From an uncultured Candidatus Saccharibacteria bacterium (GTDB lineage Bacteria; Patescibacteriota; Saccharimonadia; Saccharimonadales; CAYUUR01), in assembly GCA_964448075.1 (NCBI GenBank), contig CAYUUR010000002.1, positions 158,010 to 222,009 of the forward strand: 64,000 bases of DNA, written 5' to 3'. Under the pieces are notes generated by a model. That model was not told the origin of the DNA, did no database searches, and saw nothing but the letters and a program-made list of their open reading frames with translations. The translations under genes and the position numbers were made by a program. Each line of letters opens with the position of its first letter. The stretch's first letter is position 1. This document shows positions 3,581 through 21,374 of this stretch, in pieces.

Positions 3581-3988
3581 TTAGGTTTCGACCTGTCCGA
3601 GTACGAAGCGCACGATAACCTGCGAAAGAGCAACAACTACAAGACCGATGATCGCGTAGAGGATGGTGTTCTTGGCGCCAGATACATTGCCTGAATCACC
3701 ACCTGAAGTAATGTACTTCAGACCACCGACGATAATCATAATAACCGATATAACACCAACCACGAAAGAGAAGACGTTAATAACGGTTTCGATGATGTTG
3801 TCCACAGATTCTTCTGGGCTTTCGGTGCCACAGTTTGGGTCGCTGACATTGAGACAAGCGCCTTTGTTGAGACTATCTTCGATGTTTGCTTCCGCACTGA
3901 CTACACCACTTACGGCCATCATTGGCAGCACGGCCGCCGCAAACACAAGTGCTGCGTTGGCGAGTGTTAGTTTAATCTTTTTAATCAT
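3581..3988 (-). CDS. T4SS pilin-like protein (TrbC/VirB2-type membrane hairpin), paralog 1
   Basis: 135 aa. Signal peptide ends VVSA. Cys bracket CLNVSDPNC, then TM-loop-TM module VISVIMIIVGGLKYITSGGDSGNVSGAKNTILYAIIGLVVVAL. An 83-nt spacer lies upstream and a terminator downstream. Confidence 0.7.
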   Translation of the reverse strand: MIKKIKLTLANAALVFAAAVLPMMAVSGVVSAEANIEDSLNKGACLNVSDPNCGTESPEESVDNIIETVINVFSFVVGVISVIMIIVGGLKYITSGGDSGNVSGAKNTILYAIIGLVVVALSQVIVRFVLGQVET

Positions 3989-4021
3989 ATCTGTTATGTA
4001 ACCTTTCTTTATGCTGCTTTG

Positions 4022-4051
4022 TTTATACCATAATCACTTCGGTATCATCAA
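4022..4051 (-). promoter_or_regulatory. candidate promoter for pilin paralog 1 (TTGATG-18-TATAAA on the minus strand)
   Basis: Hexamers at 4051-4046 and 4027-4022 (minus strand) in the only sizeable spacer of the pilin operon. Sequence match only. Confidence 0.3.
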
Positions 4052-4071
4052 GTATTTTCTGCGTAACAAGG

Positions 4072-4476
4072 CTATATCTGCTTTAGAACAAATCGCACAA
4101 TCACCTGAGACATTGCCACTACCACTAGGCCAACAATTGCATACAGGATGGTGTCTTTTGCGCTCGACACCTTACTGCTGTCACCCCCTGAAGTTACATA
4201 CTTGAGCCCACCAATAATAACCATGATTACTGATATCACACCCACTACAAAGCTCAGGACATTAATAACTTTGCCGATGGTGCTATCCACGGTGCCGGTC
4301 TTTGGGTCGGCATCACAACCGCTTGTGCCCGTCGTGAGTCCAAGTCCTTTACAGACTTCGTCTTTGGCAACTTGAGCAGAAACGAGTGCAGGGGAGGCAG
4401 CACCTGCCAACGAAACACCAACTACAAAGAGTAGTAATGTACTTGTGAGTATGTGTTTTAGTTTTTTCATCATCAT
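4072..4476 (-). CDS. T4SS pilin-like protein, paralog 2
   Basis: 134 aa. Signal peptide ends LVSA. Cys bracket CKGLGLTTGTSGC, then module VISVIMVIIGGLKYVTSGGDSSKVSSAKDTILYAIVGLVVVAM. Confidence 0.7.
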   Translation of the reverse strand: MMMKKLKHILTSTLLLFVVGVSLAGAASPALVSAQVAKDEVCKGLGLTTGTSGCDADPKTGTVDSTIGKVINVLSFVVGVISVIMVIIGGLKYVTSGGDSSKVSSAKDTILYAIVGLVVVAMSQVIVRFVLKQI

Positions 4477-4481
4477 CCTTA

Positions 4482-4874
4482 TTATATGTTATTTACTACG
4501 AATACGACTATACTTTGCGCCACTACAATTACAATCAAACCGATAACAGCAAACAGTAGGGTGTTGCGTGCGCCAGCTACACCTTGAGGGTCACCGTGGG
4601 AGGTGGTAAAGCGTATACCGGCGATAATGATCATTATGACTGCAATGACGCCTGCTACGATGGCGATAAACCCGGTGACGCGCGTCAAGATTCCATCTTT
4701 GCCCGCTACTGGGTTAGCGTCAGGGTTGTTCTTTTTCTCAAGACAAACCGATGAATTAGCGCCAGTACCATTACAGTCTACGCTCTGGAGCGGATCAACA
4801 GCATGAACAGTTGCTGGAGCAAGGAGTAGCAGGGTAGTCGTTAGTGAAGCGATGAGAATTTTAAACTTTTTCAT
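4482..4874 (-). CDS. T4SS pilin-like protein, paralog 3
   Basis: 130 aa. Signal peptide ends TVHA. Cys bracket CNGTGANSSVC, then module VIAVIMIIIAGIRFTTSHGDPQGVAGARNTLLFAVIGLIVIVV. Confidence 0.65.
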   Translation of the reverse strand: MKKFKILIASLTTTLLLLAPATVHAVDPLQSVDCNGTGANSSVCLEKKNNPDANPVAGKDGILTRVTGFIAIVAGVIAVIMIIIAGIRFTTSHGDPQGVAGARNTLLFAVIGLIVIVVAQSIVVFVVNNI

Positions 4875-4876
4875 TT

Positions 4877-5149
4877 TTACAATCCATTTACTACAAATTT
4901 AGTAATAGCAAAGGCGAACATGACGATTATGAGACCGATCACCGCATAAATTATGGTGTTCTTAGCCTTGGCGGTTTGTTGTGGTTCGCCCTGAGAAATA
5001 ATGTACTGCACGCCAGCAATCGTGATAATAAGTACACATAATGCGCCCGCGACACCGAGTACGAGTGAGAACGCCGTCTCAACAGTACTACTGTTTGTAG
5101 TTACCTGTGGAAGGCCGGTTTCTAGCTGAGCGAATATTCGTGCGTTCAT
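4877..5149 (-). CDS. T4SS pilin-like protein, paralog 4 (minimal, 90 aa, no obvious signal peptide)
   Basis: Starts MNARIFAQ and has no Cys bracket. Module LCVLIITIAGVQYIISQGEPQQTAKAKNTIIYAVIGLIIVMF. Its ATG lies 1 nt after the upstream stop. Confidence 0.55.
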   Translation of the reverse strand: MNARIFAQLETGLPQVTTNSSTVETAFSLVLGVAGALCVLIITIAGVQYIISQGEPQQTAKAKNTIIYAVIGLIIVMFAFAITKFVVNGL

Positions 5150-5150
5150 A

Positions 5151-5579
5151 TTAATTGAATTGTCCTGCTAAGAATCTTATAAGTACGACTGCGGTCATGG
5201 TGATTACAAGACCGATGAAAGCATTGAGTACGGTGTCTTTAGCCCGTTTAGTACGGTCTGGTTCACCCTGACTCGTGAGGTATTGTAAACCTCCCCATAT
5301 AATCCAGCCAACCACAACCATACCAATAACCCTTAGTAATATGTCGATAATCGCTAGGCCAACGAGCCAGAAGTCACCGACACCGTTGAGATGAGGGGAA
5401 CAGATAGTGTTTTCGGCGTTTGTCAGGGGATTATAGGTTAGTACCTCTACTCCAGTAAGGTATTGGTACCACGTAGGTATCCCAAAGAATCCTGAGTCCG
5501 GGAATTTGCACGGCACAGGCTCAGCCTGTGCGAATATTCGAACGAGCGAACTAGAAAGTAGGTAGGTAAACGAGTCCAT
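5151..5579 (-). CDS. T4SS pilin-like protein, paralog 5
   Basis: 142 aa. Weak leader ends RIFAQA. Ectodomain with 2 Cys, then module VVVGWIIWGGLQYLTSQGEPDRTKRAKDTVLNAFIGLVITMT. Confidence 0.6.
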   Translation of the reverse strand: MDSFTYLLSSSLVRIFAQAEPVPCKFPDSGFFGIPTWYQYLTGVEVLTYNPLTNAENTICSPHLNGVGDFWLVGLAIIDILLRVIGMVVVGWIIWGGLQYLTSQGEPDRTKRAKDTVLNAFIGLVITMTAVVLIRFLAGQFN

Positions 5580-5582
5580 GAT

Positions 5583-6278
5583 TTAGAAGATTGCCATCGG
5601 TATTAACCAGTTAAGTATAGCATAGGTCATCAGGTAGATTGGTAGCGCAACGAGTAGGGTACTAACGAGGCGTTTTTTGGCCAAACCAGTTTTGTTCGGG
5701 TCACCAGACGCTGTGGCATATTCAAACCCTGCATACATAATTGAACCGATGAGTGCTAAGCCAATACCACCGGTCAAGATCCTAATAAAGGCGAACAGCA
5801 TGTCCACAATCGCGTTGCCTTCACCTTTACAACCGATGTCGAACGATGGGTAGACTTCATAAGCACCGTCTTGCTTGCTTCCACACCTGACTGATTCATT
5901 ACCGGTATACTCGGTTGTAACGATTTTAGATGCGTCGGCCTGTACAGGACGCAAGGTCGCTTCGTCAGGTGCTCCGCTACTCAAACCCAAATTTTCAGGT
6001 TTAGCTATCTTTGGGTCGTCGCATTTGATCTCTACACCAGACTGCGTAATGTCATCACCCCATATGTAGCACCCGGTGAGGGGATTAGGCAGTCCTGCCG
6101 TCTTAAACTGTGATTTTTCTAGGTTATCGATATCGCATACCGCAATTTTTTCGATTTTGCCCTTATTATCATAAAAACATTGAGCACCTGACTGGGCGTT
6201 TGCATTAATAGAGACAGCTATCGAAACAGTTAGTCCCGAAAGTAGGTATAGTGAGATAAAAGTTGGTTTACGCATCAT
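5583..6278 (-). CDS. T4SS pilin-like protein, paralog 6 (large 6-Cys ectodomain)
   Basis: 231 aa. Signal peptide ends NANA. About 150 aa of ectodomain with six Cys, then module GLALIGSIMYAGFEYATASGDPNKTGLAKKRLVSTLLVALPIYL. Confidence 0.55.
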   Translation of the reverse strand: MMRKPTFISLYLLSGLTVSIAVSINANAQSGAQCFYDNKGKIEKIAVCDIDNLEKSQFKTAGLPNPLTGCYIWGDDITQSGVEIKCDDPKIAKPENLGLSSGAPDEATLRPVQADASKIVTTEYTGNESVRCGSKQDGAYEVYPSFDIGCKGEGNAIVDMLFAFIRILTGGIGLALIGSIMYAGFEYATASGDPNKTGLAKKRLVSTLLVALPIYLMTYAILNWLIPMAIF

Positions 6279-6768
6279 TAACTACCTGATGCCCAATAAT
6301 TACCGGTTTATTATTTTCTTTTTGTACACTCAACGTAAGCACGACCCTCTTCTTATTTACCAGCTCACATTTATAAACGTAGTCGGTGGTTGTTTTAGTA
6401 GAAAACTTCTTATCCGTTCGTGCGCAAGTTTTGAAAGTTATTCCGTTCTGTAATCGTTTAATGACAAGTTCTTCGAGTCCAGAGTCTTTAGTAAGTGTTT
6501 TACTCAACATCGACGCTGTATCCGAGTCATATCTTCCGTCGTTCATGTGCTGCATAAAGTCAGCTGCTACTTGGTCAGAGCTTCTGTTATTTACACTTAC
6601 TTCTTGAGGCTTCGTTTCTACGAAAAGGAGAATGCCGCCGAGCACAAATAGCACCAGTAATGAACTAAAGAAAATAATACTCTTGCCAGAAATGCCTTTT
6701 GATTTTTGCACAGGCGTTTCTTGATTCAAGATATAATTGTAGTCTGGCTTGATTGGTTCTTGGTTCAT
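6268..6768 (-). CDS. N-terminally TM-anchored hypothetical protein, first gene of the pilin operon
   Basis: 166 aa. One TM helix (IIFFSSLLVLFVLGGILLFV) followed by about 110 aa of small alpha/beta-looking domain. Overlaps the next gene by 11 nt. A VirB8/PrgL-like role is speculation. Confidence 0.45.
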   Translation of the reverse strand: MNQEPIKPDYNYILNQETPVQKSKGISGKSIIFFSSLLVLFVLGGILLFVETKPQEVSVNNRSSDQVAADFMQHMNDGRYDSDTASMLSKTLTKDSGLEELVIKRLQNGITFKTCARTDKKFSTKTTTDYVYKCELVNKKRVVLTLSVQKENNKPVIIGHQVVNDA

Positions 6769-6879
6769 TTTGATTTTATATTAGCTTATTTCCACTACAG
6801 TTTAACACCTTTTTATTTCAATTGGCCACAAAGAGTACTACAATATGAAAAAGTGGGCTAAAATAGACTTATACCAATT

Positions 6880-9800
6880 ATGTTTAAAACAAACCTTTCG
6901 ATAGTCAGTAAAAAGGGCTTGAGCGTACTGCTTGCGGTGGTTTTTGCGACCGTCTCTATTGCTATGCCCATATTTGCTGCTCAGCCAGCTCATGCGCAGA
7001 GCGTTCCTTCAGATGGAAAATGGTTAGACGCCTTTAACATCAAGGTTGGTGACTTTGTGTTTAAAGTTGACCCGATAACCGCTGCGGTAGAGCCAGAAGC
7101 GCCGGACTACGTAGTGGAAGCGGGGCTCGCCGAAAGGCCGGGCGTCCTCAATCCAGGACTTGCTAACCAGCTGAACAAAGTACCGGGGCTCGCCTATGTC
7201 AAGGGTGTGGCTTCCTGTAGAGATATCTTATACGTCACGGAGCGTGGAGCAAGCTCTGGACAATACCAGGAAAGAGAAAAGAGTGCTAGCGGCGATTGTG
7301 CAAACGATGGCGATGCTAAGAAAATTAACTTATCAGACACAGGCAACTCCAAAATATTTGCATACCGCCAAGACGACGATAGCATCTTTGCTCCACTTGG
7401 CTGGACAACTGCCGGCCTAAGCGAATGTAGGGAGTTTAAAAACCCAGTTATGTATCGACGCTTACCGGCGAACGACCCTCAGGCGCCACAATTTGACAGG
7501 AATCAGTACTTCTTGGTCGGTAATGATGGTAACCTCGACACGAGCGACTATATTAGAACAAAGAATGATAATGGCGACGCCTTTATTTATGCAAAACCCG
7601 CTAACAACAAATCTTGTGACAGTTTAGATATACTTTTGGCCAATAACGGCAAGGTCGCAACACCACCACCAGAAGCCTATCCGAATTTCAACTCAGAAAC
7701 TGGAGCTTATGATGATAGCGGAGCAAATGAAGGTGGTGACGCTGAAGACGGGCAGGGAACCTGTGAAGCAAGCGGTTTTAGTCTTTCATGGATTATCTGC
7801 CCTATTTTCAACGGCCTTGCAGAAGCAACAGACTGGATATACCGGAGTCTTATAGAACCGTTCCTCTACACACCACCTGTAAGTACTGACCCTGCCAGTG
7901 ATTCATTTAAGGTTTGGTCAAGCTTCCGTGTTGTCGGCAATATTGTTCTGGTGATTGGTATGCTGGTTATCGTGTTTGGTCAGTCTTTGGGGGGAGGGCT
8001 GATTGATGCTTACACCGCAAAGAAGATTCTCCCACGTATCATTGTTGCTGCAATACTAATTAATCTGTCGGTTTATTTTGTAGCTATTGCGGTAGATGTA
8101 AGCAATATTGTCGGGAAGGGTATTCAGCAGTTGATGTTTGCACCTTTTGTGGCTAGTGGAATGTCTAATTTTTCACTAAGCGGGACTCAGATAGCGGTCG
8201 GAGTAACACCGCTAGCTGTAATGGGGGGACTCTTGGCTGGTGCGGGCGCAATTAGCGCTGGTGCGGCAACTGGCGCCGGTATAGGTGCAGCACTCGTAAC
8301 TCTTGGAACAGCTATATGGCCAATGATCGGTCTATTCGTTATCCTTCCCGCGATTCTTGCGCTCATTGCTGTCTTTGCAACACTAATCCTCAGAAGAGCA
8401 CTCATCCTGTTTCTCGTTATCGTCAGTCCTATCGCCTTTGCACTGTATTGTCTGCCAAATACCGAAAAGTACTTCAAAAAATGGTGGGAGCTACTCTTTA
8501 AGGCGCTTTTGGTATATCCGATCATTGCCGTAATGTTTGCACTTGCTGACATTCTGGCGTTAACACTACTCTCTGCTAACGGCGCAACTAACTCAAATGC
8601 CGTTGAGAATGGCCTAGCAATTGTGATTGCATTCGTTATTCAGCTCATTCCATTGTTTGTCATACCGTTCTCTTTCAAACTCGCTGGAGGAGTTATCGGT
8701 AATCTATACGGTACATTGAGTGGATTTGGCAAAAAGGGTGGCGAAGCTATCAAAGGCAACCCAAACGACCAAAACTCAGCACGCAACAGGTTCAAAAGAG
8801 ACTTTAATACCAAGCGGCTAAACGCAGGTTTATCGGCTGGTATGGCCGGTACTGCCTTGAATCCTTCACTACTAACTCGCGCCGGTAGGGAGCGTGGTCG
8901 TGCACGGTTTGTTGGCGCACGAGTACAGGGTCTGGAAGCAGAGCGAAAAGCTTTTGAAGGCAGTACAGGTTGGAAGACAGCCGAGAATGATTCTAATGTA
9001 ACAGGCGCTTTGGCGTACTTTAAAGATGGAGATGCAGCTCGTCAGGGAATAGATTACTGGGAAGAGGAAGAGCGACAAAAGATACTCAGTAACAGAAACT
9101 TTGGTGTTACTGAGAGAAATGAAGCATTTCAAAACCTTGCCCGGCAAAGAGAGCAAAAAATGGCAGCCGTCGGCATCGCTGAGAAACTTGGCTATAACAA
9201 GGCAAACCGTAAGGCTGCCCTTATGAATGCTGGCACAATTGGCTTTGAAACTGCTGGTGGTAAAAAAGGTTGGACGCAAGCAACCACTGCTATGCGAGAA
9301 ATCGCTGACGGTGACGCAATGCAATATCGCTCAATGATGGATGAGTTCCAGTATGTTGCCAAAAGCCAAGCTGGACGCGCTGACCTTGCTGCAAACGTTG
9401 ATGGTAATGATGCCTACGACCTTGATCGTGCCACTGGATCACAGAGTCTGTATCAATTACTTAACTCTAAACCAAAGACAGTTGCTGCATTAATCGATGA
9501 ACATCAGGCAAGAATATGGGATTCTAATGCATCGGATGCAGAGCGTCAGAAATCAGCTCAGTTCCTGCATGAAATGAGCAATGCCTCTGTGAAGGGACAG
9601 GGATCAGCGGGTGTGCGTGATGAGATTAACGCCAAGATGGGCGACATGAATACTGCGCTTGATGCATACACTTACGCTCAGGCAATGTCAGGTGCACCTT
9701 TACCAACAAGCAGAGACGAGGTTGTCCGAGTTTCTGAACCTGACCCAGTAACTGGCGGAACCGTTACCCGTGTGGTTTCAAGACCTGTGACACTCGGTTC

Positions 9801-9900
9801 TCGTGCTGAGCAGGCTGCCGAAGCACAGCGAAGAGCTCGGGCTGTCATTGCCGACCAATCAAGAGCCTATGTACCTCCTGACCCGAATAATATTCCGTAA
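6880..9900 (+). CDS. large polytopic T4SS membrane protein, TrbL/VirB6-like
   Basis: 1006 aa. Signal peptide ends AHAQS. About 300-aa Cys-containing ectodomain, then a block of about 7 TM helices (aa ~350-620, e.g. LILFLVIVSPIAFALYCLPNTEKYFKKWWELLFKALLVYPII) and about 390 aa of charged C-terminal domain. Confidence 0.55.
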   Translation: MFKTNLSIVSKKGLSVLLAVVFATVSIAMPIFAAQPAHAQSVPSDGKWLDAFNIKVGDFVFKVDPITAAVEPEAPDYVVEAGLAERPGVLNPGLANQLNKVPGLAYVKGVASCRDILYVTERGASSGQYQEREKSASGDCANDGDAKKINLSDTGNSKIFAYRQDDDSIFAPLGWTTAGLSECREFKNPVMYRRLPANDPQAPQFDRNQYFLVGNDGNLDTSDYIRTKNDNGDAFIYAKPANNKSCDSLDILLANNGKVATPPPEAYPNFNSETGAYDDSGANEGGDAEDGQGTCEASGFSLSWIICPIFNGLAEATDWIYRSLIEPFLYTPPVSTDPASDSFKVWSSFRVVGNIVLVIGMLVIVFGQSLGGGLIDAYTAKKILPRIIVAAILINLSVYFVAIAVDVSNIVGKGIQQLMFAPFVASGMSNFSLSGTQIAVGVTPLAVMGGLLAGAGAISAGAATGAGIGAALVTLGTAIWPMIGLFVILPAILALIAVFATLILRRALILFLVIVSPIAFALYCLPNTEKYFKKWWELLFKALLVYPIIAVMFALADILALTLLSANGATNSNAVENGLAIVIAFVIQLIPLFVIPFSFKLAGGVIGNLYGTLSGFGKKGGEAIKGNPNDQNSARNRFKRDFNTKRLNAGLSAGMAGTALNPSLLTRAGRERGRARFVGARVQGLEAERKAFEGSTGWKTAENDSNVTGALAYFKDGDAARQGIDYWEEEERQKILSNRNFGVTERNEAFQNLARQREQKMAAVGIAEKLGYNKANRKAALMNAGTIGFETAGGKKGWTQATTAMREIADGDAMQYRSMMDEFQYVAKSQAGRADLAANVDGNDAYDLDRATGSQSLYQLLNSKPKTVAALIDEHQARIWDSNASDAERQKSAQFLHEMSNASVKGQGSAGVRDEINAKMGDMNTALDAYTYAQAMSGAPLPTSRDEVVRVSEPDPVTGGTVTRVVSRPVTLGSRAEQAAEAQRRARAVIADQSRAYVPPDPNNIP

Positions 9901-9940
9901 GTTGATAGTTTGCAGATAATACATAATACTTAAGGTTAAG

Positions 9941-10957
9941 ATGGCGCAGTATAAAGTTTTACAGGACATTGAAGCAGAGGACAAACTCCTTGGCCCGTTG
10001 AGTTTGCGGCAGTTCCTCTATGCAGTCATTGCGATTGTCTGTGGTTTCATTGCTTTCCGTCTGTTTATTGTTCATCCTTTATTGGCCATCCCATTACTGC
10101 CACCAGTCGCGCTGTTCTTCATCCTCGCGGCACCGTTTGGGCGTGATCAGCCGTCCGAGGTTTGGCTTTTGGCAAAGATTAGGTTTTTCCTAAAACCACG
10201 TAAGCGCCTGTGGGACCAAGCTGGGCTGCAAGAACTGGTAACTGTCACGGCGCCAAAAAAGATTGAACGGCAACTAACTGATGGTTTGAGCCAAACAGAG
10301 GTGAAGAGCCGTCTGCGAGCCCTAGCTGACACCATCGACACCCGCGGTTGGGCAATTAAAGGTATGGATCTTAACATGGCGAATAACCCTGTGTATTATC
10401 GACAAAGCACTGACCGACTGTTTGATGTTAATGCGCTCATGCCAGCTACTAATCCAAACGCAGATGTGCCACTAGAAAACGACCCTATGGCGGCATTTAA
10501 TCCTATCGCACAACAGTTTGATCAAATGGTTGCCGCCTCGGACCAGTCACACAGACAACAAATTATGGATCGTATGCAGCAGATCCGCGAGCAGCAACAA
10601 GCAACACTCGCTCAACCACAAGCACCGTCTCCGCAGCCACAGTACGCGCGGATGGCTGCCACGACCCCACAGCAGACCATGCCACAGCCTCAGAATGACA
10701 CTACATCATATCAGTTACCGCCACAGACTGATGCACACCAGGCCCAGCAAGCGGCCTATGGAAACACACACGTTATTCAACCTGCCGTTCCACTAACTCA
10801 AACACCACCACCAGCAACGATTCCTCCCGTGACAGAGCCCAACCAAGCTGTTAAAATAGAACTTGCCAAGAACAACGACCTGAATGTGGCTACCATCGCT
10901 CGTGAAGTAAATAAGGGTGATGAGCCGCAGGATGAAGTAGTCATCTCACTACGTTAG
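9941..10957 (+). CDS. PrgI-family (VirB3-like) T4SS membrane protein with long Q/P-rich C-terminal extension
   Basis: N-terminus MAQYKVLQDIEAEDKLLGPLSLRQFLYAVIAIVCGFIAF plus a second TM helix matches the PrgI family pattern from memory. The C-terminal ~130 aa are Q/P-rich low complexity. Confidence 0.6.
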   Translation: MAQYKVLQDIEAEDKLLGPLSLRQFLYAVIAIVCGFIAFRLFIVHPLLAIPLLPPVALFFILAAPFGRDQPSEVWLLAKIRFFLKPRKRLWDQAGLQELVTVTAPKKIERQLTDGLSQTEVKSRLRALADTIDTRGWAIKGMDLNMANNPVYYRQSTDRLFDVNALMPATNPNADVPLENDPMAAFNPIAQQFDQMVAASDQSHRQQIMDRMQQIREQQQATLAQPQAPSPQPQYARMAATTPQQTMPQPQNDTTSYQLPPQTDAHQAQQAAYGNTHVIQPAVPLTQTPPPATIPPVTEPNQAVKIELAKNNDLNVATIAREVNKGDEPQDEVVISLR

Positions 10958-10968
10958 TTGTTCACTAG

Positions 10969-11865
10969 GTGGGCACAAAAAACTATATGAACCCTTCAAA
11001 CCAAAACAATCAGATACCGCAGGCTGCCCAACCGCAGCAGTACGCGTACCCTGCACAAGGTGCGGCACCCCAGCCAGTGCAGGGGCCGGTTGTTGCTGGG
11101 CAAGCTCCACCAAATCAACAGATAGCCAAGAACAAGTCAAATCCCAACAGTACACAAAATAATCTGATGATTGCCGAGATTCGTGACGGAATCGTCATTA
11201 TGAATGATGGTTCATTCCGTTCTGTCATCATGGCTAAATCCATTAACTTTGACCTGATGAGCATGCAAGAGCAAGAGGCGGTTGAGGCCGGTTATCAGGG
11301 CTTTTTGAACTCGCTCTATTTTCCGATCCAGATCTTTATGCGCTCTCAGAAGATTGACCTCGAACCCTATATTGCCAAGCTAGACAAGATCCGTGGTGAA
11401 CACGACAATATGTTGCTGTCTGTGCTCATGGAAGATTACATCAACTTTATGGATGGTCTCTCGGTCCAGACAAATATTATGGATAAGAAATTCTACTTAA
11501 TTATTCCGTATTTCCCAGTACTTGACGTCCAAAAAGCAATAACTGGCAGCAAGAACTTCTTTAGCGGCTTAAGCGCCTTATTCAGTAATAAGGAACAACA
11601 CGTGACAATCAACGAGCAAGACCTAGAAAAAGCCAAGTCAGAGCTGCGCAACCGCGTCCAAGCCGTACTCGGTGGTCTGCTGCAATGTGGTGTTCAGGGC
11701 TTGCCACTTGATACACAAGAGCTGATTGAGTTGTACTACGACACCTACAACCCCGACACCGCCACCCGTCAGCAACTTAAGAACTTTAATGACCTTACTG
11801 TTCCCGTGGTCACAAAAGGCCAGGGTCCTGCGCCACAACCCAACCTAGAACGAGGACTACAGTAA
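10969..11865 (+). CDS. T4SS protein resembling the N-terminal module of Gram-positive VirB4 ATPases (possible split VirB4)
   Basis: 298 aa with a GTG start at 10969 (alternative ATG at 10987). Q/P-rich N-terminus, then IAEIRDGIVIMNDGSFRSVIMAKSINFDLMSMQEQEAVEAGYQGFLNSLYFPIQIF. Its stop overlaps the virB4 start (TAATG at 11863-11867). Confidence 0.45.
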   Translation: MGTKNYMNPSNQNNQIPQAAQPQQYAYPAQGAAPQPVQGPVVAGQAPPNQQIAKNKSNPNSTQNNLMIAEIRDGIVIMNDGSFRSVIMAKSINFDLMSMQEQEAVEAGYQGFLNSLYFPIQIFMRSQKIDLEPYIAKLDKIRGEHDNMLLSVLMEDYINFMDGLSVQTNIMDKKFYLIIPYFPVLDVQKAITGSKNFFSGLSALFSNKEQHVTINEQDLEKAKSELRNRVQAVLGGLLQCGVQGLPLDTQELIELYYDTYNPDTATRQQLKNFNDLTVPVVTKGQGPAPQPNLERGLQ

Positions 11866-13793: not shown

Positions 13794-16700
13794 ATGGCTC
13801 TGAAACTTGACGATAAGCCAGATGAACTATACGACGACGGCCATCCTTCGTGGCAAACCAATATCCAAGGTCTAGAGGATTCATACAATAGTGCCAGTGC
13901 GTCTGATGGCGACCTGCCAGACGGACACCCAAGCAAAAGCTCATCAGGCAAGAACCTCTCTGATATGGAGAGTAAAGGCGCCACGGCTGCGCCAGGCTCA
14001 AACGCCGAACAGACAGAAAAAAAGGGCCTAACTGACGCGCTGGGCGGTGCAGGCACGGCGGCTAGCTGGGCTACTAATATCGCCAGTAAACGCGTACCTG
14101 TAGCATGGCTCGGTGCAAACAAAAAGAAAGCTGCTGCGGGCGGTGGCGTGTTTGGCGCAATTATCGCATTCTTTGTTGGTACGGCAATCATAACGCAAGG
14201 GCCATTACAATTAATTCACGCTGGGCAAATGCTTAAAGGATTCCATTGGTCTAGTAACGAAGAGTTTGGTAATGAACGTAGCGGCAACCTATTGTTCGCA
14301 GCCAAGAATATTGCTGATGGCAACGCCTACCGCAATAACCTTGGCGTCGTTGGTAATAAATTTGCCGATACCTATGATAAGCGACTCGCAAAACAAGGTA
14401 TAGAGTTTGAACGCGGCAACAAACGCTTGGCGCAAAGCGTAACAATCGACAGAAATACTGATGCCGGTAGAAAACTTGAAGCTCGCTTAGCATCAGAAGG
14501 CATCGATGTAGCAGAGCTGGATGGCAATAAGTTAAAGGTTGATTTAACAGGCGATGACGTCATCAAGAAGATTAACAGTGTGACTGATGGCGCCTTGGAT
14601 TCAATCAATAGAAAAGGTAAGGCTTCTTACGTTTCAAGAAAAATCCTCCGTTTACGTAACGGAACAAGCTGGAATGTTCTACAGAATAAGGCCCGTGCAA
14701 AAACACAGGAGCTCGGGGACTACTATAAAGAGCGGCGCGAAAAACGTGCCGAAAAGCGCAAACAGGGTGCAAGTGACCTAGATGCTGATAGAGCAAAAGC
14801 TCAAGACGTAGATAAGAATGGCGATGGAGAAATCGATGGCCCAGACCCTGAAGCAGAAAAAGCTGCGAACGCGGGCAATGAGATACTAGATGACGTAACC
14901 GATACCGATGTGACAAAAGTTGATGGGCAGGCAAAGTTAGGTGATGCACAAAAAAGCTTAATGCAGAAGCTTGGCCCAGCTGGTAAGGTAGCGGGTGGCG
15001 CGGTCGCAGTAGTTGGCTTAACTTGTGCCGCGCGCAGTATTGGTAACGCAGCCGAGGATGCGCAGTACGCCAGTAATATTCTGCCAATGATTCGCATGGG
15101 AACAGATATTATTAGTATCGCTTCACAGGTTCAGAGTGGACAGGTGAATATTGATGAGGTGGGTAGCGTGGTGAATGATTTTTTTGACGAAACCGAGAAG
15201 CCTGCAGCAAAATCATTCTTTGCGGCTAAATCTATTCAGGTAAACCAAGGTAATCCAAACGCGGGCGGACCAGACTTGCCCGAAGAAGCGAACCCGGGTT
15301 CTCTTGGTAAAAAACCTGTGGTCTTTGATGTTATCGACAGGATTCCTGGTATAGAACAAGCCTGCTTTGTCACCGATAAAGCAGGTGAACTGCCGGTCGT
15401 AAAACAGTTCGGCGATGCGTCAAATGCAATTATTAGCTCTGGTATCGAATCGCTGACGGGCAAGTCAACAGAAGATTTTGTGAGTATGTTAATAAACTAC
15501 GTGGCAGGTAATGCTGTTAATGTACTGGCGCAAGGTGCTGAACTCGGTAACCTCGCCAATGCAGGCTCGTTCTTAGCAGCAAACGAGAATGCACTTTCGA
15601 TGGGCGGACGTAAGTTAACGGGCGAAGAGGTTGCTGAACTGCGTGAATACAACGCCGAAATACAACGCCGTGAAAACTCCCAGAAGACATTCTTTGCGCG
15701 CATGTTTGACCTTAACGACGCTCAGTCATTACTTTCTAAGAATACTGTTCAAAACCCAAATGTTGCATCTGTTTCCGCATCCACTCAGTCGTTCCTCAAA
15801 GCTCCGGCGAGTCTGCTTTCAAACGTAAGTAGTATTTTGTCACCACGCGCGCACGCAGCAGCAACAAATTATGACTTTGGCGTGCCAACATATGGGTTCA
15901 GCTTGTCCGAACGACGTGACGCACGATTCAGCGACCCATACGAGAGCGCAGAGAAGATTTACGACAAACTAGACAAACTCAACGAGGAATATGGGGAATG
16001 TTTTCAGGTGAAGATCACAAAGGATGGAAAACTAACACAAGAGGAGGGTGTACCGTACACTAAGATACCTGACAAATGTAATGGTAATAGTGAGGATTTA
16101 TTGCGCTACCGATTCTGGGTCGCTGACACAGTACTCAGTAAAGGTCTATCGTGTATGGACGGAATGGACGAAAACGACTGTACTGAGCTTGGCTTCGGCA
16201 GTACTGGTGATACGAACGAATCGGCAGCAAATGCCTCAACAAGCAATCCTAATCTTTATATGATTGGCGATTCGTTATCAATCCATCTTCGATCAGGAGG
16301 CACAGCAGATATCGTCAAGCGTTTTAAAGAAAATGGCTGGACAGATGTTTGTGTAGAGGCAGAAGAAGGTAGGCCACTTGGGGCGAGCGAAATGACTCAA
16401 TCTTTTGCCGAGAAGGGAGAGCCACCAATTGACTGTCGCGGGGCAACCAACACAAAAACAAAAGGCTTACTTCAAATCAATCAACAACCAGACAAAGACG
16501 CCATCGCAAAGGCGGGCACGGTAGTTATCTCACTTGGTACGAACGATGGGCCGTCTGCATTCACATCATTCAGAGATAACGTCAAAAAGATGGTTACCGA
16601 TATAAGAACAATTAATCCTGCAGTGCAAATTAAGTGGATAAATACATACACTGCACGTGATGTCACGAGTGGTGGTACGTATCTCATTAAGGATTTCGAC

Positions 16701-17465
16701 GAGATGAATCGTATTCTGGGAGAAGTCTCGAAAGAAATGAACTTTGAGGTGCTTGATTGGCATAGTGTTGCTGCGCCAAATTACTCGTCCGACCCTATTC
16801 ATCCTAACCCTGTTAAGTATGCTGATTTTATTCTAGAGAAGGTAGGGCGTCCCGCAGTAAACTCTTCGGGCGTAAGTGGTGTCACATGCCCTGATAACCT
16901 CGAAGAAAAACCCGACAAACCCGGTTATTTCAAAATGCCAGATGCGCCGAACGGGGAATACTCAATCTACTCTGTTCCTGCACGAAGATATGGAAGTAAA
17001 CAACTCGTTTGTGTCTTAAGTACTGTCGCGAAAGCATACAACACCTTATACGCTGGTAGATCAAAAATGGATATCGGTGATCTTAACGCTGACGGACACA
17101 GTTCCCACTACAAAGGAATTGCCGTTGACTTGGACGCCAAAGGCGAGCTAGCTGCCGCTGATCACACGGGCTCAAAGCGAGGTACCTACGACAAGGAGGC
17201 CACAATAGCTCTCGGAAAATTATTAGTGGATACAGGAGCTATCCAAAATATCTGGTGGTGCGAACCTGGCGCGGTCGGGAAACCTAAAGGAATTGCACCT
17301 CGTCCTGAGCATCTATCTGGAAACGATGGAACTATGAACGCGATTCGTGATTATGCCAAAGAAAAAGGAACACCGATTACGTTGTATTGCATTTCAGGAC
17401 ACCAGAATCACTTTCATGTTGATATAAAGGAGGAGTTTGCGCTACAAGGATCATGGAAGCCATGA
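13794..17465 (+). CDS. membrane-anchored giant cell-wall hydrolase: SGNH/GDSL esterase plus M15 (LAS) zinc peptidase domains
   Basis: 1223 aa, SD GAGGG. TM helix at aa ~116-134. SGNH blocks IGDSL (S827), LGTNDG, DPIHP fall at nt ~16248-16838. M15 motifs SSHYKGIAVD (SxHxxGxAxD) and HFH fall at nt ~16911-17438. Confidence 0.65.
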   Translation: MALKLDDKPDELYDDGHPSWQTNIQGLEDSYNSASASDGDLPDGHPSKSSSGKNLSDMESKGATAAPGSNAEQTEKKGLTDALGGAGTAASWATNIASKRVPVAWLGANKKKAAAGGGVFGAIIAFFVGTAIITQGPLQLIHAGQMLKGFHWSSNEEFGNERSGNLLFAAKNIADGNAYRNNLGVVGNKFADTYDKRLAKQGIEFERGNKRLAQSVTIDRNTDAGRKLEARLASEGIDVAELDGNKLKVDLTGDDVIKKINSVTDGALDSINRKGKASYVSRKILRLRNGTSWNVLQNKARAKTQELGDYYKERREKRAEKRKQGASDLDADRAKAQDVDKNGDGEIDGPDPEAEKAANAGNEILDDVTDTDVTKVDGQAKLGDAQKSLMQKLGPAGKVAGGAVAVVGLTCAARSIGNAAEDAQYASNILPMIRMGTDIISIASQVQSGQVNIDEVGSVVNDFFDETEKPAAKSFFAAKSIQVNQGNPNAGGPDLPEEANPGSLGKKPVVFDVIDRIPGIEQACFVTDKAGELPVVKQFGDASNAIISSGIESLTGKSTEDFVSMLINYVAGNAVNVLAQGAELGNLANAGSFLAANENALSMGGRKLTGEEVAELREYNAEIQRRENSQKTFFARMFDLNDAQSLLSKNTVQNPNVASVSASTQSFLKAPASLLSNVSSILSPRAHAAATNYDFGVPTYGFSLSERRDARFSDPYESAEKIYDKLDKLNEEYGECFQVKITKDGKLTQEEGVPYTKIPDKCNGNSEDLLRYRFWVADTVLSKGLSCMDGMDENDCTELGFGSTGDTNESAANASTSNPNLYMIGDSLSIHLRSGGTADIVKRFKENGWTDVCVEAEEGRPLGASEMTQSFAEKGEPPIDCRGATNTKTKGLLQINQQPDKDAIAKAGTVVISLGTNDGPSAFTSFRDNVKKMVTDIRTINPAVQIKWINTYTARDVTSGGTYLIKDFDEMNRILGEVSKEMNFEVLDWHSVAAPNYSSDPIHPNPVKYADFILEKVGRPAVNSSGVSGVTCPDNLEEKPDKPGYFKMPDAPNGEYSIYSVPARRYGSKQLVCVLSTVAKAYNTLYAGRSKMDIGDLNADGHSSHYKGIAVDLDAKGELAAADHTGSKRGTYDKEATIALGKLLVDTGAIQNIWWCEPGAVGKPKGIAPRPEHLSGNDGTMNAIRDYAKEKGTPITLYCISGHQNHFHVDIKEEFALQGSWKP

Positions 17466-20044
17466 CATACAAACACAGGTTAGGTATCGGACTCCTTTTA
17501 CTACTGACGGTATTCATGTCGTTTCAAAACACTGTAGTGTACGGGCTCTCTGCGGCACAAAAAGCACTTATCGAAAGTGGTGTACATGACTACAATATTG
17601 AGGAACCTGATTGTAGTGCAGTTGGAACTCCTACAATTCCTGGTGGACAGCAGGCCGCAACTTCTGCTCCACCAAAGTCGATATACATGCTTGGTGATTC
17701 GATAACAAACGGTGCAATTGCCAAATATAAGAAGGCTTTTGATGCAGCCGGCATCAGTAGTTATGTCAATGCGTCGGGAGGTAGGTCCTGGACTGGTGGC
17801 GGTATAGCAGGAGCCGTCACACCTGAAGGAAGTCTAAAACCCGGAAAGGACGCAGTCATCGATGATAAACAAAAAATAAAGGAAGCGGGGGGGATTATTA
17901 TTGCCTTAGGGACCAACGGCGGTGAAGCCAACAACCCGATCTCCGAGATTATTGATACTTTCCGTTCCGCAGACTACAACCCAACTGCACCGATATGGTG
18001 GGTGAATACAGCAACCGTGAAGGGCCTAGAAGCTCTTGGACCATTTAATAAAAAACTTGATGAGCAAGCTACTGCGCAAAACTTTAACGTAATTTCGTGG
18101 GCAAAAACAGTTAATCCAGCAGGCGACCCGTATGTGATGCCGACAGATAATGCTGCGGGGTTTATTGCTGGGGGCGATAATGTACACCCATCGGGGGCAG
18201 GGCAGGATGCACTTGTAAAACAAGTTGTCGACACAATAGCCGCCGGGGTGAAGCCTTCTATTCAAGTAAGTGGTAATACCTGTAAGTGTGAAGCGCCGGG
18301 CATTGCCGGATCACCGACTTTAAAGGGCGGTACAAACCCTGAAATTATGTTTAATTACTATGTTGACCTTGGCCTTTCGCCTGCACAGGCAGCTGGAATA
18401 ACTGGTAATGCTATGGCGGAAAGTGGCGCAAATATTGATCCTAGGATTCGTAGCCCAGCTGGTTACACCGGTATATTTCAATGGGATAAAAGTAGTCGTT
18501 GGCCTCGGTTAGTTAGCTGGGCAAAAGAAAAGGGTAAAGATGAATACGCTCTGGAAACCCAGATGGAATTTGCATGGCTTGAGGCAACAGAGCGCGGCAT
18601 TGATCAAGAAATGAAGAATCAGAATACTGTCGAACTAGCGACTTGGTATTGGGGACGTTTCTTTGAAATTGCAATAATTAATGGCAGTAAAAGTAAAGAA
18701 CCTCTTACGAACGTGCAGATACTTGATAAAAGAACAAATTTTGCCCGTGACGTACTGGCTTCGTTTGGAGGCAATACACCTTCAACAATAAGCGCAACAG
18801 AATCCTCCGGTGATACAGGTGCAAAAACTGTTGTCGCACTTGATCCAGGTCACGGTGCAGCAATCCCTGATTACACTGATCCGATAACTGGACTAAAAGA
18901 CCGAGAAACGGCTAACTCTCCAGAAAGAGAAGACGTACAAGATGTTGCTAATCGCATTAAAACTAGTCTCGAAAAAGACGGTTACTCCGTCATATTGCTG
19001 AAAGACACTGCCGATGGCAGTATTAACAAAAGGGAGCGCGTTAATAAGGCGATTAGTGCGAATGCTAACTTAGTAGTAAGTCTCCATACAACACCTGGTG
19101 AGCAGAATGAAGTGTGGCCGCAAAGGGTGGGTAAATTCCGTGAGAATAATGACGACAAAAAGCGTGTTACTTTTGAGAACGAAGAGACAGCTGTTGCAAG
19201 TGATAAATTTGCGAAAGCTATCGCCGAAGAGCGTACCAAAACACAGGGTAAGCCAGTCGATACCGATGAAGACCAATCGTCGCAGAAAGCAGCCTTCTCT
19301 GCAGAAAGAGATGGTCTTAATGCTTCAGGGGATATATCGCTCGTTCAGTTATGGTCCACTGATATCCCGTGGGTCTACAACGAAATCGGTCAAGATGGTC
19401 CAGGAAACAGTATTACTGAACAAACAAAACAAGCTTATGCTGATGGTGTTGTGAATGGTATTAAGAAGTCTCTGCCTGTTAGTGCAGGATCAAACACGAC
19501 GAACTGCGTTGATAGTACTTCAGTTGGCTCGGGCGATCTTGCTGCGACCATCAAAGCATATGCTTGGCCTGATCAACGCAACACAGGTGACGCCAATGCT
19601 CGAGAGATGATGCCGGCATATAAAGAGGCTGTGGCAAAATCAACAGCCGAAGGAATTTATAACGGGGGGACTACATATGATGGAATTGACTGTGGCGGCT
19701 TCGTAACACTCGCACTTCTTAATAGTGGTTATGAGCCGAATTATAACTTTGCCGGTAAGGGTGGGCCGACAGGCACTCAACTTGACTGGGTGCGAAAGAA
19801 TTGGCAGAAATTGGGTAGGGGTAACGAAATTAACACTGGCACACTTCAGTTAGGTGATGTTGCATTTCGAGTGACATCAAGTGGCGGAAATGCAGGTCAT
19901 ACTTTTGTATACGTTGGCCAACTAGACGGGTTTAATGGTATTGTGGCATCAGCGGGACTTAATAATCGTGCACCCTCCGCAAATGGTGGTTATGACGATA
20001 AGAATGTTACTAAATCATCATACGAATGGTATAGGAAGAAGTAG
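17453..20044 (+). CDS. secreted four-domain peptidoglycan hydrolase: SGNH esterase, phage-tail-lysozyme-like, Amidase_3 and NlpC/P60-like domains
   Basis: 863 aa with an N-terminal signal/TM segment. SGNH motifs LGDSITNG, LGTNGG, DNVHPS at nt ~17675-18238. Lysozyme-like GITGNAMAESG..GIFQW at ~18326-18763. Amidase_3 motifs LDPGHG..E..VSLHT at ~18824-19477. NlpC/P60-like GIDCGGFV..GHTFVYVG at ~19535-20041. The start overlaps the upstream stop by 13 nt. Confidence 0.7.
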   Translation: MEAMTYKHRLGIGLLLLLTVFMSFQNTVVYGLSAAQKALIESGVHDYNIEEPDCSAVGTPTIPGGQQAATSAPPKSIYMLGDSITNGAIAKYKKAFDAAGISSYVNASGGRSWTGGGIAGAVTPEGSLKPGKDAVIDDKQKIKEAGGIIIALGTNGGEANNPISEIIDTFRSADYNPTAPIWWVNTATVKGLEALGPFNKKLDEQATAQNFNVISWAKTVNPAGDPYVMPTDNAAGFIAGGDNVHPSGAGQDALVKQVVDTIAAGVKPSIQVSGNTCKCEAPGIAGSPTLKGGTNPEIMFNYYVDLGLSPAQAAGITGNAMAESGANIDPRIRSPAGYTGIFQWDKSSRWPRLVSWAKEKGKDEYALETQMEFAWLEATERGIDQEMKNQNTVELATWYWGRFFEIAIINGSKSKEPLTNVQILDKRTNFARDVLASFGGNTPSTISATESSGDTGAKTVVALDPGHGAAIPDYTDPITGLKDRETANSPEREDVQDVANRIKTSLEKDGYSVILLKDTADGSINKRERVNKAISANANLVVSLHTTPGEQNEVWPQRVGKFRENNDDKKRVTFENEETAVASDKFAKAIAEERTKTQGKPVDTDEDQSSQKAAFSAERDGLNASGDISLVQLWSTDIPWVYNEIGQDGPGNSITEQTKQAYADGVVNGIKKSLPVSAGSNTTNCVDSTSVGSGDLAATIKAYAWPDQRNTGDANAREMMPAYKEAVAKSTAEGIYNGGTTYDGIDCGGFVTLALLNSGYEPNYNFAGKGGPTGTQLDWVRKNWQKLGRGNEINTGTLQLGDVAFRVTSSGGNAGHTFVYVGQLDGFNGIVASAGLNNRAPSANGGYDDKNVTKSSYEWYRKK

Positions 20045-20683
20045 ATGCAAAGATCTCAAACAAGAATAAAGGTATTTATTACAGCCATTGCAATAATCAC
20101 GGTAGCTATAATACTCTATTTCTTGATTAGCGGTATATCAAGACGTGGTGAGACAAAGTTAAACATTCAGACTATTCCCTCGAGTGCAGAAGTTAAAATT
20201 GACGGGAAAGCGGCAAGAAAATCAACCTACCTATCACCCGGAGAACATACCTTAAGTATCTCCGCTTCTGGCTTTGAAACTCAAGAGGATACAGTGAATA
20301 TTAGTAACGGCGCTACGACACGATACTACCCATTAACACCAGTGTCTGAATCAGCTAAAGCTTGGGCAAAGAAGAATCAGACACTCTACTTGCAGCTTGA
20401 GGGAAAAGTGGCAGAACAAAATAGAATTGAAGGGGAGACATTTGCAAAGAATAACCCTATTACGAATGTATTGCCTTATCGGGGTGCTTTATATGATATT
20501 GAGTATCGTCAGAAGGCGAATGGTCAGATTGTCATCCTAATAATTGCTGATAGCGCTGAAAACAGAGCGTTTGCACTACGGAAGATAGAAAATATGGGTT
20601 ATCAACCGACTGATTTTGAGATAGAGTTTCCCGTTAATTTTTCTAATGTGTTCGACAATTTAGAGGAGTACGAGGAAGGTTAG
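20045..20683 (+). CDS. TM-anchored PEGA-domain-like protein
   Basis: 212 aa. One N-terminal TM helix, then LNIQTIPSSAEVKIDGKAARKSTYLSPGEHTLSISASGFETQEDTV (PEGA-like). The ATG directly follows the upstream stop. Confidence 0.5.
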   Translation: MQRSQTRIKVFITAIAIITVAIILYFLISGISRRGETKLNIQTIPSSAEVKIDGKAARKSTYLSPGEHTLSISASGFETQEDTVNISNGATTRYYPLTPVSESAKAWAKKNQTLYLQLEGKVAEQNRIEGETFAKNNPITNVLPYRGALYDIEYRQKANGQIVILIIADSAENRAFALRKIENMGYQPTDFEIEFPVNFSNVFDNLEEYEEG

Positions 20684-20684
20684 T

Positions 20685-21374
20685 ATGTCTAGACGCAGAT
20701 TGATTGTTTTGTCGTTACTACTAATAATTGTATGTTTCCTTATCTTCATAGGGGTGCAATATGTGAACTCTTTTAACACAGTTAAGATCCTCATAAAGCA
20801 ACCACCTACAGAATCCGTTACAGTAAAGATTTACCCCCTGATCGACCACGAATCGTCGACTAAAGACTACGAAGATAAAACACCACTAAAAGAAACGAGT
20901 AGTGACATTAATATACGTCTCAAAAATGGCGAGTACGTCATAGTGATACCTGAGGGCACGGTCTATGAACCACTCGTACAAGAGTTCGCCGTCGATGCAT
21001 CACGTAAAGATGCCGTAGTACTACCTCGTTATAGTAGTCAAGGCCTAGAATCTCAACTTAACAAACAAAGATCAGATATCCGAGCCGTGCTATACACTCA
21101 GTATGATTTTCTAAACCCCAAGAAGCGGCTATATACATTCTTAGACGAGAAACTACACTTACAGGGTAATTGGTATACCGCTACCGTTCGTGAGTTAATC
21201 CCTGGCAGAAACAAATCAGATATATATCGTATCGTTGCCCAGAAGAAGGAAGATAATTGGATTCTGGTAACGATTCCTCCGGATCTAGTAATTAGTAATG
21301 TAAGGTACCCTGACATACCTAGGGAAGTTCTCCTTGACCTTAATGGGCGTCAATCTATAGCTGACTTACAGTAA
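20685..21374 (+). CDS. TM-anchored hypothetical protein, last gene of the T4SS-like operon
   Basis: 229 aa. One N-terminal TM helix. 1-nt gap to the upstream gene. No family recognised. Confidence 0.45.
   Translation: MSRRRLIVLSLLLIIVCFLIFIGVQYVNSFNTVKILIKQPPTESVTVKIYPLIDHESSTKDYEDKTPLKETSSDINIRLKNGEYVIVIPEGTVYEPLVQEFAVDASRKDAVVLPRYSSQGLESQLNKQRSDIRAVLYTQYDFLNPKKRLYTFLDEKLHLQGNWYTATVRELIPGRNKSDIYRIVAQKKEDNWILVTIPPDLVISNVRYPDIPREVLLDLNGRQSIADLQ

Follow-up and report, generated by a model that had tools for sequence, protein, structure and literature searches.

All Saccharibacteria carry a chromosomal type IV secretion system (T4SS). It was reported for the first time in 2020, for TM7x and other members of the group, as comprising VirB4, VirB6, PrgI and four to six small secreted proteins with an adjacent competence gene (McLean 2020, PMC7427843). 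In Southlakia epibionticum ML1, transposon sequencing showed that the genes SEML1_0004-0019 are essential for growth on the host, 15 of the 16 scoring as such, and the authors remarked on the pilins as well as on the missing coupling protein and relaxase (Wang 2023, PMC10633639). A survey of the Patescibacteria described a VirB4 clade related to MPF_FATA with abundant TrsD and PrgI, pilin arrays of 2-11 genes, nearly absent relaxases, type IV coupling protein (T4CP) homologues mostly far from virB4, and proximity to dnaA/dnaN (Quinonero-Coronel 2025, PMC12102498). A 2025 review regards this as the first T4SS to be essential to the cell that bears it and as the sole monoderm type to have VirB2-like pilins (PMC12857230), the role has been called completely unknown (PMC11665869), and a literature search found no structural or substrate study of the saccharibacterial T4SS. 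The present analysis concerns a 64-kb stretch of contig CAYUUR010000002.1 from an uncultured Candidatus Saccharibacteria bacterium (hereafter the window, whose numbering is used for all positions). The locus at 3581-21374 is very probably the orthologue, in uncultured environmental Saccharimonadales, of this chromosomal T4SS, descended from monoderm conjugation machinery and no longer conjugative.

The gene table of S. epibionticum runs from dnaA, dnaN and recF through a beta-rich protein of 249 residues (SEML1_0004, prealbumin-like plus BT0923-like), a PEGA protein of 211 residues (0005), a lysozyme-type hydrolase (0006), an M15B-like protein of 1113 residues (0007), VirB4 (0008), a 293-residue protein (0009), PrgI (0010), a 998-residue protein (0011), a non-essential NTF2-like protein (0012), a VirB6-like protein (0013) and six pilins (0014-0019) to hsp20 (0020), the non-essential comFC (0021) and then a tRNA-Ser gene; 0004, 0005, 0006, 0007 and 0011 are each essential (PMC10633639). 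The window displays the mirrored order, and neither locus holds a relaxase or a T4CP. The paired sizes, S. epibionticum first, are 612/635 residues for VirB4, 293/298 for its upstream neighbour, 300/338 for PrgI, 998/1006 for the large polytopic protein, 211/212 for the PEGA protein and 249/229 for the beta-rich protein, orthology being assigned here by position, size and domains rather than by sequence alignment. The two loci differ in that S. epibionticum carries a second VirB6-like protein (0013, 1088 residues) and the TAT-signal NTF2-like 0012 between 0011 and the pilins, whereas the window has one VirB6-like gene and, on the pilin strand, a 166-residue protein with a transmembrane (TM) segment and an NTF2-like domain. 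In addition, the window hydrolases contain SGNH esterase and Amidase_3 domains, neither of which is listed for 0006 or 0007.

Relatives of the locus were collected by a VirB4 search of species-representative genomes, which found 577, and the best 80 of these 577, 82-93% identical in VirB4, were used as related loci (L001-L080). The records of 78 of the 80 are named Saccharibacteria, Saccharimonadales/Saccharimonadia, Saccharimonas, Microsaccharimonas or Patescibacteria group, and the other two 'bacterium' and Dormiibacterota. The order hsp20, pilins on the opposite strand, VirB6-like gene, PrgI, TrsD, VirB4, hydrolases and recF-dnaN-dnaA was observed on about 60 species-level Saccharimonadales contigs and in nearly every contig that was long enough; PrgI was matched in 72 of the 80 loci (tblastn, E <= 1e-5) and TrsD in 78. 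This conserved gene order in about 60 species-level genomes demonstrates that the locus is a fixed chromosomal machine and not an integrative and conjugative element (ICE), as the sequence-only reading of the window had proposed from its flanking genes.

The median identity to the window proteins, ranked over the same species-level genomes (78 loci for TrsD), was 85% for VirB4, 79% for Hsp20, 74% for DnaA, 71% for TrsD, 65% for DnaN, 52% for RecF, 43% for PrgI, 37-49% for the pilins, 30% for the VirB6-like protein and 27-32% for the hydrolases. The motor is thus better conserved than the replication initiator, and the exposed parts evolve fast. The conservation of VirB4 points to a core gene that is inherited vertically and under strong purifying selection, and the variable surface parts, together with the domain swaps of the hydrolases described below, fit an interface with variable hosts.

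The flanks are composed of core genes, as had been claimed. Two tRNA-Ser genes, a gene for a ComFC-type phosphoribosyltransferase and hsp20 stand on the left, and recF, dnaN and dnaA on the right, followed by rpmH, rnpA, yidC and a Jag-like gene. The stop codon of dnaA (23778-25142) lies 2.4 kb from the locus end, and DnaA-box-like clusters occupy both intergenic regions beside dnaA. All open reading frames (ORFs) of at least 110 residues in the window were scanned for domains, and none of them carried a relaxase, T4CP (VirD4/FtsK-type) or integrase domain, in agreement with the sequence-only reading. VirB5, VirB7, VirB9, VirB10, VirB11 and VirD4 were not recognised at the locus. No direct repeats bracket 3581-21374, and there is no marked base-composition break in the window.

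The locus itself comprises 15 ORFs, 7 on the minus strand and 8 on the plus strand (Table 1), and its coordinates confirmed the two tightly packed divergent operons and the 111-bp shared region described earlier. From gene to gene the spacing is 40, 11, -1, 21, -13, 0 and 1 nucleotides (nt) in the plus operon, within the earlier range of -13 to +40, and 83, 5, 2, 1, 3 and -11 nt in the minus operon; the 3' end of the gene for the 229-residue protein overlaps recF convergently by 20 nt. Inspection of the shared region by eye indicated TTTCAA-17-TACAAT (6816-6844) facing the plus operon and TTAAAC-16-TAATAT (6805-6778) facing the minus operon. A promoter and terminator consensus scan yielded nothing above chance in 3300-7100 and no match inside the 111-bp region, and alignment of this region across nine relatives revealed no conserved operator, the region not being conserved.

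Table 1. Features of the T4SS locus, in window numbering
Feature	Position	Strand	Size and evidence
VirB2-type pilin 1	3581..3988	-	135 aa; PF18895 T4SS_pilin E 1.9e-12, TrbC 2.6e-4
VirB2-type pilin 2	4072..4476	-	134 aa; PF18895 E 7.7e-11
VirB2-type pilin 3	4482..4874	-	130 aa; PF18895 E 3.6e-10
VirB2-type pilin 4, short form	4877..5149	-	90 aa; PF18895 E 1.3e-15
VirB2-type pilin 5	5151..5579	-	142 aa; PF18895 E 1.7e-8
Divergent pilin 6	5583..6278	-	231 aa; PF18895 E 3.4e-3; NCBIfam Mbov_0395 pilin-like 1.3e-5
Bitopic membrane protein, NTF2-like ectodomain	6268..6768	-	166 aa; no Pfam/NCBIfam match; AlphaFold2 fold
Divergent intergenic region	6769..6879	.	111 bp; presumed back-to-back promoters
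Extended VirB6-like polytopic protein (likely)	6880..9900	+	1006 aa; sub-threshold TrbL in homologues; Foldseek TrwI/VirB6
PrgI/VirB3-like membrane protein	9941..10957	+	338 aa; PF12666 PrgI E 3e-11, residues 5-90
TrsD-like protein	10969..11865	+	298 aa; NCBIfam TrsD/TraD 2.9e-6
VirB4-family ATPase	11865..13772	+	635 aa; NCBIfam CD1110 1.3e-108
Membrane-anchored giant protein, SGNH/GDSL esterase + LAS/VanY-type peptidase	13794..17465	+	1223 aa; Lipase_GDSL_2 E 3.6e-10
Four-domain peptidoglycan hydrolase	17453..20044	+	863 aa; Phage_lysozyme2 2.3e-19, Amidase_3 2.1e-12, Lipase_GDSL_2 2.5e-6, NlpC/P60 2.8e-4
TM-anchored PEGA-domain protein	20045..20683	+	212 aa; PF08308 PEGA 5.3e-7
TM-anchored beta-rich protein	20685..21374	+	229 aa; no Pfam match; iterative HMM equivalents

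The assignment of the VirB4-family ATPase is borne out by its match to CD1110, which stood above the curated cutoff of 325 bits and was aligned only from profile position 174 onward. Pfam added P-loop_TraG (1.4e-29) and AAA_10, and the PDB added the C-domain of Thermoanaerobacter VirB4 (4AG5, 2.3e-48) and TrwK (1.4e-6). The Walker A motif AKSGAGKS starts at nt 12660 and the Walker B motif LLIVDEAW at nt 13320, both as predicted, and the 635-residue protein is devoid of the canonical N-domain. The preceding 298-residue ORF, joined to the virB4 start by a TAATG overlap of 1 nt, matched profile positions 11-75 of the same VirB4 family CD1110 (8.6e-5); its TrsD/TraD match is a domain-level match below the curated full-length cutoff, and a PF26593 TraC-like match is precomputed on the record for this gene. 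The TrsD/TraD and CD1110 N-terminal matches together demonstrate that the VirB4 N-domain is encoded as a separate, translationally coupled protein. The coupling had been recognised in the sequence-only reading, and the identity of the 298-residue protein as a TrsD-like, detached VirB4 N-domain is a correction to it. The PrgI/VirB3-like assignment held as well, with 44.1 bits against a 27-bit cutoff for a gene two genes upstream of virB4, whose product ends in a long Q/P-rich C-terminal tail.

The 1006-residue protein begins with a signal/TM segment, after which come a beta-rich ectodomain (about 40-215), a bundle of TM helices (about 300-625) and, on the cytoplasmic side, a helical domain (about 700-930). 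Sub-threshold TrbL matches (PF04610, E 0.004-0.4) covering nearly the whole profile were found in 4 of 9 homologues, one of which also matched TrbL_4 (6.5e-4, below the gathering score). The AlphaFold2 model, built from an alignment of 61 sequences, reached a predicted local distance difference test score (pLDDT) of about 90 in the TM bundle and the C-terminal helical domain, and its two best Foldseek matches in the PDB were R388 TrwI/VirB6 chains, 8rtd_L (probability 0.99, E 0.026, target-normalised TM-score 0.38) and 8rt9_F (0.98, 0.049 and 0.39, respectively). Comparison of the family profile with PDB sequences gave only coiled-coil noise. PF19590 is precomputed on many homologues; it was not reproduced with Pfam, and the literature search found no mention of it. 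The position, size and topology of the protein fit an extended VirB6-like protein, which it likely is. In some relatives the VirB6-like gene is present as two ORFs, and the gene content between it and PrgI is variable, an extra ORF of about 310-380 residues being inserted there in some, such as L001, L002, L028 and L062.

The predicted array of six pilin-like genes was confirmed. Five minus-strand ORFs exceeded the PF18895 gathering score (E 1e-8 to 1e-15), and pilin 6, which fell below it, aligned with the other five over the whole two-helix VirB2 hairpin. Identity to pilin 1 ranges over 19-53% across the array, pilin 2 being the closest at 53%. Pilin 6 possesses a Cys-rich N-terminal ectodomain of about 130 residues and is a candidate minor or tip pilin. 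Exactly six pilins were found in 29 of the 36 complete related arrays. When the best match of each window pilin was sought in 34 six-pilin loci, it stood at the same ordinal position in all 34 for pilins 5 and 6, in 33 for pilin 1, in 30 for pilin 4, in 24 for pilin 3 and in 17 for pilin 2; of the remaining 17 best matches of pilin 2, 16 went to position 1, its close paralogue. The median length at position 4 is about 100 residues across loci. These positional best matches show that the six pilins are old, distinct orthogroups in fixed order and not recent amplifications, and such fixed orthogroups argue for a structured heteromeric filament rather than for antigenic variation.

Two giant cell-wall hydrolases had been proposed downstream of VirB4, and both proteins do contain the corresponding domains, the first being assigned only in its C-terminal third. 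This 1223-residue protein has one TM segment at 113-138 and no assigned domain within residues 1-800, followed by an SGNH/GDSL esterase at about 820-1010 with an intact GDSL at residue 825 and a C-terminus with an intact LAS/VanY zinc motif (H1105-x6-D and H1206-x-H). Peptidase_M74 was matched here only at E 0.067, and the L062 orthologue carries VanY (9e-12) plus GDSL. The 863-residue protein joins an N-terminal TM/signal segment to an SGNH esterase, a lysozyme, an N-acetylmuramic acid (MurNAc)-L-Ala amidase and an NlpC/P60 endopeptidase, and by its domains it is the predicted functional VirB1 analogue. The SGNH domains of both window hydrolases keep an intact GDS(L/I) block and may act as peptidoglycan de-O-acetylases. 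Across species the second hydrolase keeps its position and swaps its catalytic domains: SGNH, lysozyme, amidase and NlpC/P60 in the window are replaced by SGNH, lysozyme and a C39-like domain in L002, by lysozyme and CHAP in L008, by glucosaminidase, amidase and NlpC/P60 in L062, and by GH3, lysozyme and M23 in L018. This species-to-species shuffling suggests matching to the chemistry of the host wall.

The last two genes of the plus operon encode the two TM-anchored beta-rich proteins that had been expected there. Iterative hidden Markov model (HMM) searches detected positional equivalents of the PEGA protein in 24 loci and of the 229-residue protein in 27, and the latter cross-matched the N-terminal TM-plus-beta domain of the former; these mutual matches indicate that the two are paralogous in that region. 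Four relatives (L019, L031, L057 and L067) have at this position a single ORF of about 470 residues whose N-terminus matches the 229-residue family, and unannotated ORFs of 435-531 residues occur there in L002, L005, L018 and L054. The single ORF in some relatives may represent a fusion.

The 166-residue protein at the head of the minus operon has 23 relatives among 1.84 billion representatives (HMMER), nearly all of them 165-182 residues long. The family shares the motif PDYxFILNQ at its cytoplasmic N-terminus, with P and I invariant and with D and Q in at least 90% of the sequences; a single TM helix comes next, and then an ectodomain that evolves fast and keeps two invariant Cys. The first ~16 residues are far better kept than the remainder, which is 20-37% identical, and conservation of the motif suggests that it might dock to a conserved cytoplasmic partner. 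The AlphaFold2 model (pLDDT 84, above 90 in the ectodomain) adopts an NTF2-like fold. The top Foldseek matches were generic NTF2-like proteins; VirB8-family structures came at ranks 14 (TrwG, 4nhf_F, probability 0.98), 31 (an R388 chain) and 50 (Agrobacterium VirB8). The modelled arrangement of a short cytoplasmic tail, a TM helix and an external NTF2 domain is a VirB8-like architecture. Of 47 related loci searched with the family HMM, 9 contained the protein, each time with pilin 6 as the next gene downstream, and this restricted occurrence makes it a subclade accessory and not a core part. An exact-protein look-up recovered the 166-residue protein solely from short Logan contigs, which duplicate the locus, and had no record of a 184-residue ORF or of hsp20. 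Two giant repeat proteins that also matched were dropped, having unrelated Pfam content and being judged compositional or repeat artefacts.

These components suggest how the machine may work. VirB4 would reside at the inner membrane face with its detached TrsD-like N-domain and would be held at the membrane by the PrgI/VirB3-like and VirB6-like proteins. It would pull the six distinct VirB2-type pilins from the membrane, and with VirB6 as the platform these would form a polymeric pilus or tube. The two membrane-anchored hydrolases would open the cell's own wall and probably that of the host, with O-acyl groups, the glycan strand, the MurNAc-peptide bond, and the peptide stem and cross-link as predicted targets, and the two TM-anchored beta-rich proteins, joined in a subclade by the NTF2-like protein, would serve as wall-spanning accessories. 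The assembled machine would then mediate contact-dependent exchange with the host bacterium and would be needed for epibiotic growth.

Several points weigh against this picture. The saccharibacterial T4SS has no known substrate, effector or structure, the cell's own wall could be the sole target of the hydrolases, and the essentiality data come from another species, S. epibionticum ML1. The 1006-residue protein itself has no Pfam match, TrbL/VirB6 included, so the VirB6 assignment, already made in the sequence-only reading, is sub-threshold by sequence and draws on its homologues and on a moderate fold match (E 0.03, TM-score about 0.38). The NTF2 fold occurs widely outside VirB8, too widely for the 166-residue protein to be claimed as a VirB8 member. 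Moreover, T4CP homologues are located elsewhere in many Patescibacteria genomes (PMC12102498), and one could lie outside the window.

The literature offers two alternatives for such a system, the same two that the sequence-only reading had named, a host-contact or translocation apparatus and a ComB-like uptake machine (PMC11665869, PMC12857230). The second bears on which way transport runs and leaves the identity of the locus untouched: a T4SS of the ComB or feeding-tube kind would import DNA, RNA, nucleotides or other building blocks from the host, which is possible rather than probable. The comFC gene adjoins the locus here, in 20 related loci with the flank recovered, in S. epibionticum and in TM7x, no T4CP or effector-like gene is present at the locus, and a perspective article, with ComB as its precedent, considers the T4SS a candidate route for acquiring nucleotides (PMC11665869). 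A 2026 preprint on another patescibacterium describes host-directed tubular structures, possibly T4SS pili, together with host RNA uptake (10.64898/2026.06.21.733656). However, deletion of comEC in S. epibionticum abolishes transformation and not viability, and comFC (SEML1_0021) is non-essential whereas the T4SS genes are essential, so any import must bypass ComEC and ComFC; ComB-like uptake through ComEC as the essential role is argued against by these published genetics. ComB is not known to include a VirB1-type hydrolase, and its outer-membrane core parts have no counterpart here; the sequence says nothing on the direction of transport. A more elaborate version of import is unlikely: in it a heteropolymeric pilus of six ancient pilin paralogues, none of them redundant, and species-tailored hydrolases would pierce the host wall, VirB4 would import host RNA, nucleotides or lipids without ComEC, and the 166-residue protein would couple to the motor via PDYxFILNQ.

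Another explanation is mainly an envelope-biogenesis or adhesion organelle without translocated cargo, in which the pilus would serve attachment alone and the hydrolases the remodelling of the cell's own wall during growth and budding. The hydrolases and beta-rich proteins do make up more than half of the plus-operon coding length, and no cargo gene is recognisable. Nevertheless, adhesion and motility of Saccharibacteria are already served by two type IV pili (PMC12206443), and in every T4SS studied the core of the translocon is made of VirB4, VirB3 and VirB6 (PMC12102498). That VirB4 is so extremely conserved argues for an active motor, and this alone does not separate pilus assembly from transport. 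Taken together, an organelle of this kind is quite unlikely.

Finally, an ICE or its remnant, with relaxase, coupling protein and att sites just outside the window, could draw on a VirB4 closest to conjugative MPF_FATA-type ATPases (CD1110, 1e-108; Thermoanaerobacter VirB4), on a partial tRNA-Ser(tga) 3'-end duplication 1.4 kb left of the locus and on the ultimate descent from conjugation machinery (PMC12102498), but core genes on both sides in the same order in about 60 species and a VirB4 divergence below that of DnaA form a vertical pattern, the 64 kb contain neither relaxase, T4CP nor integrase, neither flanking direct repeats nor a marked composition break, and comFC and hsp20, themselves syntenic, stand between the tRNA scar and the locus, so that synteny, flanking core genes and gene content effectively exclude this reading.

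Two regions of the window outside the locus deserve description. An Rfam scan of the window detected two tRNAs only. The tRNA-Ser(gct) gene occupies 1532-1624 and is separated from tRNA-Ser(tga) by an 84-residue ORF (1634-1888) with no Pfam match. The 3' end of tRNA-Ser(tga) with about 45 further nt (1961-2029) is repeated at 2077-2142 in blocks 93% and 85% identical, and the repeat ends at the comFC stop codon (2144), 1.4 kb left of the locus; the arrangement (1889-2142) looks like an att-type scar or a partial tRNA duplication. On the other side, about 36 kb (27832-63561) is devoted to surface-polysaccharide biosynthesis, with many GT1, GT2 and GT4 glycosyltransferases, two proteins combining TPR with TOD1/MUCI70-like domains, a Wzm/Wzt ABC exporter, asparagine synthase, rhamnose genes, UDP-glucose dehydrogenase, a Wzy_C ligase-like protein and GtrA. 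Four consecutive ORFs of 445-796 residues (42176-48902) and an ORF of 182 residues in this region have no Pfam match.

The reading of the locus as the orthologue of the saccharibacterial chromosomal T4SS places it within a system already in the literature with the same key points, a Gram-positive-type, chromosomal T4SS near the origin that has pilins, lacks relaxase and T4CP and is probably directed at the host. The sequence-only reading had stated that T4SS-like genes were noted in Saccharibacteria and that their role was unresolved; reviews do still treat the role as open, and the statement understated what is published, since essentiality in S. epibionticum, the missing relaxase, dnaA proximity and the pilin arrays were all reported already. 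The additions from the present analysis are incremental, namely the positional orthology of the pilins, the conservation of VirB4 above DnaA, the shuffling of hydrolase domains, and the NTF2-like accessory with its conserved cytoplasmic motif. Few machines are known to be essential to Patescibacteria as epibionts, and the saccharibacterial T4SS is one of them; the window shows it present and intact in one more environmental lineage while opening no new question. The pilin orthogroups, the contrast between a conserved motor and a fast-evolving surface, and the hydrolase shuffling could guide experiments on cultured strains.

The locus shares with the Gram-positive conjugative T4SSs (pCF10 Prg, pIP501 Tra, pGO1/pSK41 Trs and the CTn2 CD1110 family) VirB4, PrgI/VirB3, TrsD, a probable VirB6-like polytopic protein, a VirB1-like hydrolase that is large, multi-domain and anchored in the membrane, and the lack of an outer-membrane core. 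Those systems possess a T4CP, a relaxase with oriT and surface adhesins, have no VirB2 pilins and reside on plasmids or ICEs, whereas the window has six pilins and no DNA-processing genes at a fixed chromosomal site. With R388 Trw and Agrobacterium VirB it has in common VirB2-type pilins (T4SS_pilin significant, TrbC sub-threshold) and a homologous VirB4 C-domain; the VirB6 fold is a moderate match of the modelled 1006-residue protein, though the best in the PDB, and the 166-residue protein resembles VirB8 in architecture. The locus differs from them in its monoderm envelope and in a VirB6-like protein about three times longer. Helicobacter pylori ComB is likewise a T4SS with a non-conjugative role, without relaxase, T4CP and VirB11, and a competence gene adjoins the window locus; unlike the latter, ComB has the outer-membrane parts VirB7, VirB9 and VirB10, and it works with ComEC. 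The T4SSs of the Patescibacteria clade combine an MPF_FATA-related VirB4, TrsD and PrgI beside virB4, a pilin array, a missing relaxase and a site near dnaA and dnaN, with comF adjacent in some classes. Nothing essential distinguishes the window from them, and its copy is an ordinary member of the known origin-adjacent, pilus-encoding chromosomal T4SS of Saccharibacteria.

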